Virus record (IMG/VR): IMGVR_UViG_3300045988_154477
DNA length: 64,000 nt
Reading direction: 5' to 3' (one strand)
DNA from: a virus
Lineage: Duplodnaviria > Heunggongvirae > Uroviricota > Caudoviricetes
Shown: positions 15,991 through 18,516 of the stretch, in pieces
Numbering within the stretch: the stretch's first letter is position 1
Layout: every line of letters starts with the position of its first letter
Translations under genes and position numbers: made by a program
The notes under the pieces: generated by a model
Told to the model about the DNA's origin: nothing
Database searches by the model: none
Seen by the model: the letters and a program-made list of their open reading frames with translations, nothing else

Positions 15991-16620
15991 ATGAACATAC
16001 CACCCAGGGCGACTAGGACTGTTTTTTGTGTCGGTAGCGGTCCGTCACTCACTCGTGAGGACTGTGCTGCTATAGAAAAAACTGGCTGTTCAATCATCGC
16101 GGTTAACAATTCCTGGCAGATGTTCGATGACATTTATGCCTTATACGCCGGTGATTTGTCATGGTGGAAGCAATACGGATCCACCATACCGGGAGGGAGA
16201 TTCCGCAAAGTGACAGCCAACCTGGCGGCGGCGAAATCATTTTCGTTGGAGTACAGGCGATATTGTGGACCGGCGGAAGGGGTAAATAGCGGCGCGCAGG
16301 CTATCAGTCTGGCTGCTGAATCAGGGGCTGAAGTAGTGGTATTAGTCGGCTATGACTGTTCTCTGCAAAACGGCCTTCATTGGCATGGCGCGCACCCTCA
16401 AGCCCTACGGAATCCAACGCAGGTGTCTATTTCAAAATGGCAACAGCAGTTCCTGGATACCCGCAAAAAACACGCAGATTTACATATTTTGAATGCAAGT
16501 AGGAGCAGTGCAATTCAATGTTTCCCAAGAATAAATTTAGAGGCAGTGATCGCGTTATTATCGTCGGCAGTGGCCCAAGCGCCGCAAACTTTGTTGCGCC
16601 GCGCGGAGTGCCGATTATAG
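15991..16620 (+). CDS. GSGPS-motif protein, paralog 1 (DUF115/MptE-like fold candidate)
   Basis: FCVGSGPSL...IIAVNNSW...VVLVGYDCS; ATG 15991 (alternative 15958). Confidence 0.5.
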   Translation: MNIPPRATRTVFCVGSGPSLTREDCAAIEKTGCSIIAVNNSWQMFDDIYALYAGDLSWWKQYGSTIPGGRFRKVTANLAAAKSFSLEYRRYCGPAEGVNSGAQAISLAAESGAEVVVLVGYDCSLQNGLHWHGAHPQALRNPTQVSISKWQQQFLDTRKKHADLHILNASRSSAIQCFPRINLEAVIALLSSAVAQAPQTLLRRAECRL

Positions 16621-17144
16621 CGGTCAATGGGGCCATCGACTGGCTGAACCGCGCTTCTTATTTTTTCACACTTGATCCATCGCCAGACAATATGCGGCGC
16701 GTTGGTCGTGGCCGCCGTCGCCGTGGTGTTTGTTATTGCATGGCACTACCCGATGTTAAAGAACGTGAAGTCAGAGATGGCGTTCTGTGCTTCCGTCGTG
16801 TGGCTGAACGCGGCATGGAGCCAAACAATACGAATTCTCCCGAGTGGTGGGCGTGGCGCTGGTCCGCACATTTCGGACTTTGCGAAGATGAGAATGAAAT
16901 TGCCAGCGGCAATAGTGCATATGGTGCTCTGAACCTGGCTTTCCATATCGGATTCAAACATGTCGCCCTGGTGGGCGTTGACGCTACACAAGAACCACGC
17001 GTTCACTCCGGCGGCACGCCAAAAAATCTAAGTCACCTGCCTTTGTTATTCCAGTCTGCGCGTGAACGGATTGACGTTGTTTCATGCGGGAAAATGGGAG
17101 GTATTCCGCAGATGACTCTTAAAGAATGGCTGAAGAATACATGA
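16518..17144 (+). CDS. GSGPS-motif protein, paralog 2
   Basis: IIVGSGPSA...IIAVNGAI...VALVGVDAT; AGGAG SD; overlaps paralog 1 by 103 nt in another frame. Confidence 0.5.
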
Positions 17145-17818
17145 TGGCACCCACAATTTATCACCGTATCGACGGTACCAAATACAGGAATGTCTGGGTT
17201 GTTGGTGATCTGCATGGTTGCTACACCAGACTGATGTCCGAACTCCATCGTGTGGATTTTGACCCGGCGCAGGATTTACTGATATCGGTCGGCGACCTTA
17301 TCGATCGCGGTACTGAAAATGTCGAATGTCTGGAACTATTGCAGATGCCCTGGTTCAGGGCAGTGATGGGGAACCATGAGCGGCTGATGATTGATGCGTT
17401 AAGTCCAGATGGCAACGTGAATAACTGGCTAATGAATGGCGGACAATGGTTCTTCATGCTGGACACTGATCAGGAAATATTAGCCTGGGCGCTGGTGGAG
17501 CTGGTAAAGCGTCTGCCCTATATCATTGAGTTGAACACCGGGCAAGAAACTATCGTTATAGCCCATGCCGACTATCCGGATAATGAATACCAATTCGGTA
17601 AGGAGGTACCGCTTTTCAACGTTGTCTGGGCGCGCGAGCGTATCAGTGATTCGATGGATGATATTGGTGGCGAAATTTCGGGCGCAGATCGTTTTATCTT
17701 TGGCCACACTCCGGTGAAAAGCCCGAAGACATTCTGGAATCAGCAGTATATCGACACTGGTGCCGTATTTTGCGGAAACCTGACATTGATGAAAGTGAAA
17801 GGTGATGGTGCAGCATGA
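17141..17818 (+). CDS. ppp: Ser/Thr protein phosphatase, lambda-phosphatase type
   Basis: GDLHGC, GDLIDRG, GNHE metallophosphatase motifs; colinear with lambda PPase as recalled; ATGA overlap with upstream stop. Confidence 0.85.
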
Positions 17819-18516
17819 AGATTGCTTTAGTTTTTCGCTCTGGTGGTGACTATAACGCTTCCGATGTGCAGTGGCTGGTTAATCAACTGCCAAAAGGCTA
17901 TGAAATTATTTGCCTGACAGACCTGAAGCGTTTACATGTACCTGGCGTCAAAGTTGTCCCATTGATCAACCAGTGGCAAAAGTGCCGTGGCTGGTGGGCG
18001 AAAATCGAGTTGTTCCGACCGGATATAACCGATGATCTGTTCTATCTGGATTTGGACACGGTTATTGCCGGTGATATACGCCCAATCCTAGAGCATCCAC
18101 CAACCAGCTTCACCATGCTTAGGGATTTTTACCATCCACAATATCGTGGCAGCGGTGCCCTGTGGATACCAAATAGTGTTAAAGCGCATATCTGGAGTTC
18201 ATTCTGGCAAGATCCGGAAGGTTGGATTTCTCGTTGTGTCACTACTGAGTGCTGGGGTGACCAGGGGTTCTTACGAAAGGTTATGGGCGATGATACACCA
18301 GCATTTCAGGATCTGTATCCAGGATGGTTTGTAAGTTACAAGGCCGATGTTGTGGAACCTGGTTCAAAATATGCGAGCGCGCGTTACTCCAGGGGGAATG
18401 GGGCATTACCAAAAGACTGCCGAATAATCTTTTTCCACGGCAAACCGCGACCTCGCGAAGTGTCAGAGGATTGGCTTCCCCTTATCAGCTCATTTTTTGA
18501 GCGAGAATCAGAATAA
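17815..18516 (+). CDS. hypothetical protein, possible nucleotide-sugar transferase (DxD-like YLDLDTVI)
   Basis: 233 aa; coupled to ppp; weak GT-A-like motif only. Confidence 0.4.

Follow-up and report, generated by a model that had tools for sequence, protein, structure and literature searches.

In E. coli, enzymes of the Maf family transfer Kdo to Ser/Thr with CMP-Kdo as donor (bioRxiv 10.1101/2020.06.03.131540), and the residues required for Maf activity include E324 and D415 in the M. magneticum enzyme and D272, S334 and D357 in CbMaf. Among phages, glycosylation of the virion has been described in mycobacteriophages, with Che8 gp110 and Corndog gp38 as examples (Freeman et al. 2023, as summarised in PMC12363180 and PMC12894461). 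In phage P1, deletion mutants of pmgO, pmgP, pmgQ and dbn exist, and deletion in the locus leaves plaque formation and antirestriction unchanged. We found in the literature no functional study of pmgO, pmgP or pmgQ, no report of P1 glycosylation and no report of a virion glycan in P1 or its relatives.

In the present study, we analysed a stretch of 64,000 nucleotides of viral DNA (IMG/VR record IMGVR_UViG_3300045988_154477), referred to as the window. The locus at 15991-18516 consists of the phage P1 genes pmgO, pmgP, ppp and pmgQ, which are long known and uncharacterised and are not new. We lean towards reading pmgO, pmgP and pmgQ, with dbn as a probable fourth member, as a glycosylation cassette of the phage, of which the acceptor is most likely a protein and, as a best guess, a virion structural protein.

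Results

The window is colinear with P1 (AF234172), with zero indels, and the control elements in Table 1 were mapped on this basis.

Table 1. Genes and control elements of the pmg region, in window coordinates
Feature	Position	Strand	Description
dbn	9025..10023	+	GT1/GT4-like (GT-B) glycosyltransferase (putative), 6 kb upstream
LPpmgL	14861..14879	+	Late promoter, transferred from P1 record AF234172 by colinearity
PpmgN	-35 15762-15767, -10 15783-15788	+	Predicted sigma-70 promoter, P1 annotation mapped by colinearity
Oppp	15801-15817	+	Predicted C1 repressor operator, P1 annotation mapped by colinearity; 16/17 identical to P1
pmgN	15861..16016	+	51-aa ORF overlapping the pmgO start; PHROG 2350
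pmgO	15958..16620	+	Putative glycosyltransferase, DUF115-fold (Maf/Cst/MptE-like); alternative in-frame ATG at 15991
pmgO/pmgP overlap	16518..16620	+	103 nt, out of frame
pmgP	16518..17144	+	Diverged pmgO paralogue; PHROG 2111, E=1e-131
ppp	17126..17818	+	Lambda-type Ser/Thr protein phosphatase, inside the operon; alternative start 17141
pmgQ	17815..18516	+	GT8-type metal-dependent retaining glycosyltransferase (putative), 233 aa
pap	20153..20659		HAD PNKP-type phosphatase, 1.64 kb downstream

The late promoter LPpmgL, with a single mismatch to P1, is located upstream of pmgL-pmgM-pmgN-pmgO-pmgP-ppp-pmgQ, and in the P1 annotation this operon stands behind a late promoter and is divergent from the adjoining baseplate/tail operon. 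The -10 hexamer of PpmgN is TACACT here and TATGCT in P1. Because Oppp is a predicted C1 operator, the pmg operon should be off in lysogens. The open reading frames were as given in the preliminary description, and the overlap of pmgO and pmgP was of exactly the length reported there, and pmgP is read in the +2 frame with respect to pmgO. Both frames are real, but constraint within the overlap is partitioned: 16518-16550 is conserved in the PmgO frame and 16551-16620 in the PmgP frame. The overlap probably gives translational coupling. Neither of the pmgO starts (15958 and 15991) has a good Shine-Dalgarno sequence; the pmgP ATG is preceded by AGGAG, 12 nt upstream. The two genes also overlap in JK004 (70 nt), phiNP (94 nt), EP_H11 (37 nt) and Xoo-sp13 (4 nt), and they are fused in P0051. 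In addition, pmgP overlaps ppp by 19 nt (by ATGA alone if 17141 is the ppp start), and ppp overlaps pmgQ by ATGA. JK004, too, has a pmgN homologue ahead of its pmgO.

The architecture V-[GS]-SGPS...IIAVN...LVG-[YV]-D, which had been claimed for both PmgO and PmgP, was located in each: VGSGPS starts at residue 25 in PmgO and residue 16 in PmgP, IIAVN is at residues 46 and 33, and LVGYD at residue 129 of PmgO and LVGVD at residue 151 of PmgP. The identity of about 30% given for the pair holds for an optimistic global alignment (47/170, 27.6%, shuffle z = 2.2) but not for BLASTP, in which only 36 residues were aligned, 14 of them identical (E=0.003). Comparison of the family profiles by hhalign, with the fusion protein P0051 left out of the alignment, covered 164 columns with a probability of 98.1% (E=1.3e-13), and the PHROG matches of the two proteins were reciprocal. 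On this sequence evidence, PmgO and PmgP are diverged paralogues, beyond chance. PmgP has an inserted Trp-rich segment at about residues 60-125 and is without an HWHGxH motif, and P20, N37, D53, N132, S133, G153, D155 and H173 are invariant in its family. When the fusion P0051 was aligned by MAFFT, the PmgO family was stacked onto the PmgP half, with P, N, D, S, G and D as common invariants.

The best match of the predicted PmgO structure was Maf (5mu5), with 164 residues aligned versus 129 for the MptE/thiamine-pyrophosphokinase side, and the model has the three-dimensional fold of the Maf central domain. PmgO has the nucleotide-sugar-binding fold of the DUF115 type that is known from Maf, Cst-I/II and MptE. 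The DUF115/MptE-like, sialyltransferase-like fold earlier suggested for both paralogs was recovered from the Pfam and profile matches of PmgO and PmgP and the structure matches of PmgO. Scores on PF01973 (MptE-like/DUF115/Maf_flag10) were 23.4 bits for PmgO and 20.9 bits for PmgP, under the cut-off of 34.6 bits, and therefore the two would be distant members of the fold superfamily, outside the Pfam family. The natural PmgO::PmgP fusion P0051 passes this model with 44.6 bits, and several PmgO/PmgP homologues carry precomputed PF01973 matches. D66, S111 and D133 of PmgO and D53, S133 and D155 of PmgP are invariant, in an order that, by sequence only, is that of Maf; the Ser-to-Asp spacing, counted along the sequence, is 22 in both proteins versus 23 in CbMaf. 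When the PDB was searched with the single PmgO sequence, the matches were noise, and NCBIfam has no model for PmgO, PmgP, PmgQ or Pap.

The protein with a DxD-like motif at the end of the locus is PmgQ, in which this motif is D79-L-D81. The family invariants K63, D79-L-D81, S113, G148-D149-Q150 and H208 line up with the corresponding residues of 6mw5 in a profile search of the PDB (E=1.6e-6), and the motifs of GT8 are present, namely DxD and a C-terminal His as metal ligands, the Lys and a GDQ-type sugar-binding motif. The GT-A fold of PmgQ is closest to GT8 structures, with Gat1, glycogenin and GlyE as best matches; no Pfam family, Glyco_transf_8 included, was matched at E<=0.1. Modelling and motifs indicate that PmgQ has a GT8 retaining glycosyltransferase fold with metal- and UDP-sugar-binding motifs, as a distant outlier of the family. 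The fourth enzyme of the pathway is likely the product of dbn, which scores just under the cut-off of Pfam Glycos_transf_1 (E=1.5e-5). A gene of EP_H11 between its PmgP-like and PmgQ-like genes is 48% identical to dbn (E=6e-107), and homologues of dbn in the phage collection were present only in genomes that also have PmgP and PmgQ homologues.

The PmgO/PmgP and PmgQ families were found together in phages phiNP, JK004, EP_H11/IME392, Xoo-sp13, XacN1 and CM1/RAS14 and a podovirus contig, and in prophages or genomes of Pseudomonas, Zhongshania, Brevundimonas, Ochrobactrum, Nitratireductor, Commensalibacter, Methylophilaceae and Sinomicrobium. Thus, phages that are not related to each other carry the three families as a set, and sugar-tailoring enzymes are interleaved with them (SAM methyltransferases, a TylF-like methyltransferase fused to the PmgQ-like domain, a hexapeptide acetyltransferase, GT1 and a small GT-A). 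The proposal of a conserved glycan- or protein-modification module was upheld, in that pmgO, pmgP and pmgQ behave as one unit across loci. PmgO-type and PmgP-type domains are repeatedly fused in one polypeptide, as in P0051 and other tandem DUF115 proteins; in P0314 a PmgO-like domain is fused to a TylF methyltransferase, and another protein combines a PmgO-like domain with Big_1 and Big_13 domains.

The cassette is placed right after the major capsid gene, or among head-completion/tail genes, in D3, PAJU2, L102, L118, L119, CcrColossus and Xoo-sp13, and the copies in chromosomes lie next to inverse autotransporters and Big_1 proteins. No examined locus was inside a waa or rfb cluster, the contexts being virion modules, lysis cassettes and adhesin genes. 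Location of glycosyltransferase genes in or beside virion structural genes is true for many relatives, whereas the P1 operon only adjoins the baseplate/tail operon. The hosts of all listed cassette phages are Gram-negative. The PmgO family comprises about 7,700 sequence clusters in phages and prophages of Proteobacteria and beyond. A scan of viral contigs for PmgP relatives yielded 80 copies from P1 that were nearly identical, with zero diversity, and the diversity of this family was taken from a species-level genome scan. No transmembrane segments were found in any cassette enzyme. PADLOC had zero matches for the five proteins, and thus there was no sign of a defence-system role.

Ppp matches Pfam Metallophos (E=9e-16; 59.3 bits versus a cut-off of 21.5) and the NinI-like PHROG (E=5e-113), and it scores 272 and 240 bits on the PrpA/PrpB models of NCBIfam, under the equivalog cut-offs. 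By these matches it is a lambda-type (PPP-family) protein phosphatase, and the P1 annotation (AF234172) gives 64% identity to lambda protein phosphatase. Pap scores 47.5 bits on HAD_PNKP (cut-off 27.6) and has VDIDGT at residues 18-23, in agreement with the HAD-like DxDGT protein earlier reported about 1.6 kb downstream. It is separated from pmgQ by two further genes as well as by a C1-controlled promoter and a strong terminator (20100-20128); by profile and position, Pap is a predicted PNKP-type HAD phosphatase of another transcription unit.

Discussion

In the pathway that we propose, translational coupling of the overlapping genes would keep PmgO and PmgP at a fixed ratio, and the two may work as a heterodimer or pseudo-dimer. 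All enzymes of the cassette would be soluble and active in the cytoplasm in the lytic phase, given that the operon stands behind a C1 operator and a late promoter, and they would draw on host nucleotide sugars, because no donor-synthesis genes accompany the cassette. The likely donor for PmgO/PmgP would be a CMP-activated ulosonic acid, in E. coli K-12 only CMP-Kdo, a choice suggested by the use of CMP-Kdo by Maf in E. coli and by the score of WaaZ on the DUF115 model. A UDP-hexose is the likely donor for PmgQ, and jointly the enzymes may build a short glycan. The acceptor would most likely be a protein, and our best guess, by analogy with mycobacteriophage virion glycosylation, is a virion structural protein. 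A protein is suggested because the closest structure, Maf, is a protein O-glycosyltransferase and the best matches of PmgQ (Gat1, glycogenin and GlyE) act on protein-linked glycans. Furthermore, the cassette lies beside capsid, head-completion and tail genes in several phages, its chromosomal copies have inverse autotransporters and Big_1 proteins as neighbours, and a PmgO-like domain is fused to Big_1 and Big_13.

Alternatively, the acceptor of the same enzymes could be lipid-linked, with modification of the LPS core or some other glycan in the envelope of the infected cell, which we consider unlikely. The LPS core is the receptor of P1, and its alteration could block superinfection or the sticking of progeny to debris. 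However, behind its C1 operator and late promoter the operon should not be expressed in lysogens, the state in which conversion of the envelope would be of benefit, and over a single lytic cycle newly made LPS accounts for the smaller part of the outer membrane. The loci examined were in virion, lysis and adhesin contexts instead of waa/rfb clusters, and the Big_1 fusion points to a protein.

The preliminary description had coupled the cassette to the lambda-type phosphatase and the HAD protein, and this part did not hold. It is improbable that Ppp, perhaps with Pap, is a working part of the module, for example by dephosphorylating a sugar-phosphate intermediate or the acceptor. The seamless position of ppp between pmgP and pmgQ, with overlapping start/stop codons on both sides, would fit such a role, as this slot houses pathway enzymes in other phages and a P1-type element of Pantoea, in which PmgP has diverged to 72% identity, keeps ppp there. 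Against it, Ppp accompanies the cassette only in P1-lineage loci and is missing from every other lineage, the P1 relative JK004 has the cassette without ppp, and phage D6 has ppp alone in an unrelated context (89.6% DNA identity). The lambda protein phosphatase is likewise located in the lambda nin region without cassette genes, Ppp scores as a protein phosphatase of the PrpA/PrpB type, and Pap is PNKP-type and stands behind the strong terminator. We conclude that ppp is a passenger in the operon and no part of the conserved cassette.

That PmgO/PmgP are MptE- or thiamine-pyrophosphokinase-like pyrophosphokinases of a small molecule or nucleotide, with a modified metabolite as product, appears very improbable, since the glycosyltransferase Maf is the better structural match, the GxGPS and SG...GxD segments align with Cst-II, and the constant partners are glycosyltransferases and sugar methyl-/acetyltransferases. 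Glycosylation of phage DNA against restriction is scarcely credible: dedicated transferases do glycosylate DNA in some phages, and the cassettes of EP_H11 and Xoo-sp13 are near DNA ligase and ribonucleotide reductase genes, but P1 DNA is routinely cut by restriction enzymes, antirestriction depends on the Dar proteins and is unchanged by cassette deletions, no hydroxymethyl-base pathway lies beside the cassette, and most contexts are virion or adhesin genes. Among the three targets earlier put forward (protein, glycan and nucleotide), nucleotide or DNA modification is the least likely. A deletion without phenotype had also been named as evidence against a modification module; the P1 mutants are already of this kind for plaque formation and antirestriction, which says nothing on modification.

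The glycosylation cassette is our preferred reading, and it means that four P1 genes (dbn, pmgO, pmgP and pmgQ) appear to encode a complete conserved pathway in a much-used genetics phage. Members of the PmgO family usually adjoin genes for capsid, tail or adhesin proteins. Should the pathway make a virion glycan, glycosylation of virions, so far demonstrated mainly in mycobacteriophages, would extend to Gram-negative phages, with a bearing on antibody recognition of therapeutic phages, particle stability and host range. A narrower form, clearly doubtful at present, is that P1 and many further phages of Gram-negative hosts O-glycosylate their own virion (or other Ig-like-domain) proteins with a short glycan in which Kdo comes from host CMP-Kdo, by a heterodimeric mini-Maf (PmgO/PmgP) and a GT8 enzyme; if true, a Kdo-protein linkage would be known from nature, and a virion glycosylation system from Gram-negative phages, for the first time. 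The database labels 'alpha-2,3-sialyltransferase' and 'morphogenetic protein' for these genes are unsupported. E. coli K-12 is not known to make CMP-sialic acid, and the former name is therefore very probably wrong on substrate.

Maf, the nonulosonic-acid O-glycosyltransferase of flagellin (PF01973/DUF115; 5mu5 chain of 632 residues), has large domains at both its N- and C-terminal ends, which PmgO and PmgP lack; these consist of the bare domain of about 200 aa and are a diverged pair that is phage-borne, without flagellin context and under the Pfam cut-off. Sequence matches to the GT42 enzymes Cst-I and Cst-II of Campylobacter (2p56 and 1ro7) are insignificant (hmmsearch E 0.04-0.7); with Cst-II only two short motif segments align, and its catalytic His is not locatable in PmgO/PmgP. 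WaaZ (GT73), which adds KdoIII to the LPS core in E. coli K-12, likewise scores on the MptE-like/DUF115 model (E=7e-7), aligns with both proteins at the SG...GxD segment and uses the sole CMP-ulosonic donor of the P1 host, but it acts on a lipid-linked core. The match by hhalign is weak (probability 14%, E=0.002, 28-81 columns), the precomputed PF27901 (WaaZ_KDO_III) match of P0051 is graded 'faint', and PF27901 had zero matches in the searched Pfam copy, even for WaaZ itself. MptE and the thiamine pyrophosphokinases differ in that the gene partners of PmgO/PmgP are all glycan enzymes and Maf aligns better, over more residues. PmgQ is only 12-16% identical to the GT8 enzymes glycogenin, LgtC, the Skp1 alpha-galactosyltransferase Gat1 and GlyE and is a minimal enzyme without a Pfam match. 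The mycobacteriophage systems differ from the P1 cassette in that its relatives have Gram-negative hosts, and a DUF115 pair or GT8-type enzyme is unmentioned in the summaries PMC12363180 and PMC12894461; a likeness is that the relatives of the P1 cassette sit in virion gene modules with methyltransferases.

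Results

Across 15900-18600 the sequence matches phage P1, P7, SJ46, RCS47 and other punaviruses at 98.5-99.7% identity, and over 14900-20800 the window is colinear with the P1 record AF234172, with 104 mismatches and no indels. The features noted in the preliminary description are therefore the annotated P1 genes pmgO, pmgP, ppp and pmgQ. The name 'pmg' means 'putative morphogenetic' and rests on gene position only; existing RefSeq/PHROGs labels are 'alpha-2,3-sialyltransferase' for PmgO and 'glycosyltransferase' for PmgQ. The PmgM protein gave a weak VRR-NUC nuclease-domain match (E=3e-4, just below the Pfam cut-off), and it is therefore likewise probably no morphogenetic protein.

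Positions of genes and hairpins in the window and of homologues at other loci (L-numbers)
Feature	Position	Remark
dbn	9025-10023	
pmgM	15216-15794	
pmgN	15861-16016	51-aa ORF directly upstream of pmgO, overlapped by it
pmgO	15958-16620	annotated P1 gene
pmgP	16518-17144	annotated P1 gene
ppp	17126-17818	annotated P1 gene
pmgQ	17815-18516	annotated P1 gene
Hairpin, pmgS-pap gap	20100-20128	T run after 11-bp stem
pap	20153-20659	downstream, as are pmgR and pmgS
Hairpin past pap	20730-20708	minus strand
waaZ, E. coli K-12	L011:5346-6197	
P0231	L117:2029-3699	556 aa
Chromosomal PmgO/PmgP/PmgQ homologues	L096:3357-9248	beside inverse autotransporters/Big_1; same spacing in L097-L100
Chromosomal PmgO/PmgP/PmgQ homologues	L009:4516-17785	beside inverse autotransporters/Big_1
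Chromosomal PmgO/PmgP/PmgQ homologues	L117:1343-11598	beside inverse autotransporters/Big_1
Cassette on a jumbo-phage-sized metagenomic contig	L121:8001-11438	contig of 248 kb

The overlap of the two paralogous genes in different frames is exactly 103 nt, as had been stated, and AGGAG lies 12 nt upstream of the pmgP ATG. The gapless run into the phosphatase and then the DxD protein was also found, with overlaps of 19 nt (or 4 nt) for pmgP/ppp and 4 nt for ppp/pmgQ; PmgQ carries D79-L-D81, and the DxDGT motif of Pap reads VDIDGT. There is little double constraint in the pmgO/pmgP overlap: at nt 16518-16550 the PmgO frame is conserved and the PmgP N-terminus variable, and at nt 16551-16620 the conserved part is the GSGPS region of PmgP, the PmgO tail being variable and often absent.

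The three motifs common to both proteins are located at residues 25/16, 46/33 and 129/151 of PmgO/PmgP. The identity of about 30% held as a figure (27.6% by global alignment), but the score was just 2.2 sd over shuffles and BLASTP aligned only 36 residues (E=0.003). Alignment of the family profiles covered 164 columns (probability 98.1%, E=1.3e-13), the PHROG matches were reciprocal, and P (GPS), N (AVN), D, S (NSG) and G and D (GxD) are invariant in the joint alignment. Judged by these profiles, PmgO and PmgP are homologous despite their weak pairwise score. The PmgO family comprises 7,685 clusters (E<=1e-3). One fusion joins a PmgO-like domain to a TylF-like methyltransferase. Tandem DUF115 fusions are recurrent (the PmgO::PmgP fusion P0051, and P0223, P0242, P0267 and P0301), and such domain fusions support a putative PmgO/PmgP heterodimer.

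Homologues of PmgO, PmgP and PmgQ are contiguous in several unrelated phages. They occur in the order PmgO-PmgP-PmgQ in Citrobacter phage phiNP (94-nt PmgO/PmgP overlap, between lysis genes and terS) and in the P1 relative Cronobacter phage JK004, in E. coli phages EP_H11 and IME392 with a GT1 gene before PmgQ, in Xanthomonas jumbo phage Xoo-sp13 (PmgO, PmgP, a methyltransferase::PmgQ-like fusion, then a host-specificity protein), and in a podovirus contig (PmgO::PmgP fusion, PmgQ, then a small GT-A). HMM scans of 36 further loci revealed the same association, with examples in prophages or genomes of Pseudomonas, Zhongshania, Brevundimonas, Ochrobactrum, Nitratireductor, Commensalibacter, Methylophilaceae, rhizobia and a Bacteroidota MAG. 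The slot between the PmgP-like and PmgQ-like genes, if filled, holds a SAM methyltransferase, hexapeptide acetyltransferase, GT1 or small GT-A. A second flavour, with PmgO-like, GT9-like and methyltransferase genes, was found in D3, PAJU2, Klebsiella phage Eowyn, a Hafnia prophage and CcrColossus.

Contig L121 encodes PmgO-like, GIY-YIG, 308-aa PmgP-like, small GT-A and PmgQ-like proteins; this cassette is therefore interrupted by a homing-endonuclease-like gene. At L009 and L117 the homologues lie between holin and lysozyme genes, with lipase, lipoxygenase or GT2 genes. Public annotation often leaves out or shortens cassette genes that overlap (L002:4492-5094; L007:3432-4070; L003:5001-5636; L005:5813-6409): no annotation exists for the PmgO homologues of phiNP and JK004 or for the EP_H11 homologue of PmgP, and the annotation of D3 orf7 falls 46 residues short and misses the GPS motif.

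P1 Dbn is a GT1/GT4-like glycosyltransferase, 48% identical to the GT1 protein of the EP_H11 cassette. Since every genome of the phage collection in which it occurs has homologues of PmgP and PmgQ as well, Dbn is probably a displaced fourth cassette member, and P1 thus has four putative glycosyltransferases.

Discussion

The preliminary observation was borne out, and its assignment of the fold and of a modification module as the general kind of function is judged right. Its inclusion of the phosphatases did not hold: Ppp accompanies the cassette in P1-lineage loci only, being absent from that of JK004 and solitary in D6. Between pmgQ and pap lie the C1-controlled promoter PpmgR, pmgR, pmgS and a strong intrinsic-terminator-like hairpin; with a second such hairpin past the gene, pap therefore appears to be an insulated single-gene unit. 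By gene context, neither Ppp nor Pap belongs to the predicted module.

A protein is the favoured acceptor, because the nearest structural relatives work on proteins or protein-linked glycans, and because several loci have the cassette immediately behind the major capsid gene or amid head-completion and tail genes (D3, PAJU2, L102, L118, L119, CcrColossus, Xoo-sp13). In addition, chromosomal copies surround inverse autotransporters (verified by Pfam in L096 and L117 only) and Big_1 proteins, and P0231 joins a PmgO-like domain to Big_1 and Big_13 Ig-like domains; both also favour this acceptor. The chromosomal copies may serve to glycosylate secreted or surface proteins with Ig-like domains. Mycobacteriophage virion glycosylation, as summarised in PMC12363180 and PMC12894461, is a precedent for a virion target.

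Against a virion glycan weighs the lack of a phenotype on deletion: pmgO, pmgP, ppp and pmgQ, when deleted singly or knocked down by CRISPRi, gave no plaque defect and left antirestriction unchanged (PMC10695390, PMC9024508). PmgO, PmgP, Ppp and PmgQ are unnamed in the main text of the P1 virion-proteome paper, and it likewise counts against a virion glycan that the P1 proteome and structure papers make no mention of virion glycosylation. Capsid- and lysis-adjacent slots also double as general cargo-insertion sites, which weighs against the protein-acceptor reading. Modification of the LPS core is a serious rival, since the families that build this core include GT8, GT9 and WaaZ-type enzymes; against it speak the predicted lytic-only control of the operon and the lack of waa or rfb context at the loci examined. 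Upstream, pmgN was scored essential by the CRISPRi screen and dispensable by deletion (PMC10695390); as knock-down of the genes past it had no effect, simple polarity fails to explain this discrepancy.

The cassette comes without genes for donor synthesis, and the listed phage hosts are all Gram-negative, so the cassette enzymes must presumably draw on host nucleotide sugars. WaaZ, the KdoIII transferase of the LPS core, matched Pfam MptE-like/DUF115 under the cut-off (E=7e-7) over almost all of its N-terminal 195 residues, which suggests that GT73 enzymes share the fold class of the flagellin glycosyltransferase Maf and of GT42 sialyltransferases. In E. coli K-12, a Maf/Cst/WaaZ-type enzyme would to our knowledge have CMP-Kdo as its sole CMP-ulosonic donor. 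We hypothesize that CMP-Kdo could be the donor for PmgO/PmgP; Kdo transfer to Ser/Thr by Maf enzymes in E. coli has been described (bioRxiv 10.1101/2020.06.03.131540).

The putative function is directly testable with P1 deletion mutants already in existence. The genes pmgO, pmgP, ppp and pmgQ themselves were already known, under loose annotation. New here are the recognition that PmgO/PmgP and PmgQ (and Dbn) make up a conserved putative glycosylation cassette, the fusions in support of a heterodimer, the contexts of capsid genes and Ig-like proteins, and the hypothesis on CMP-Kdo.
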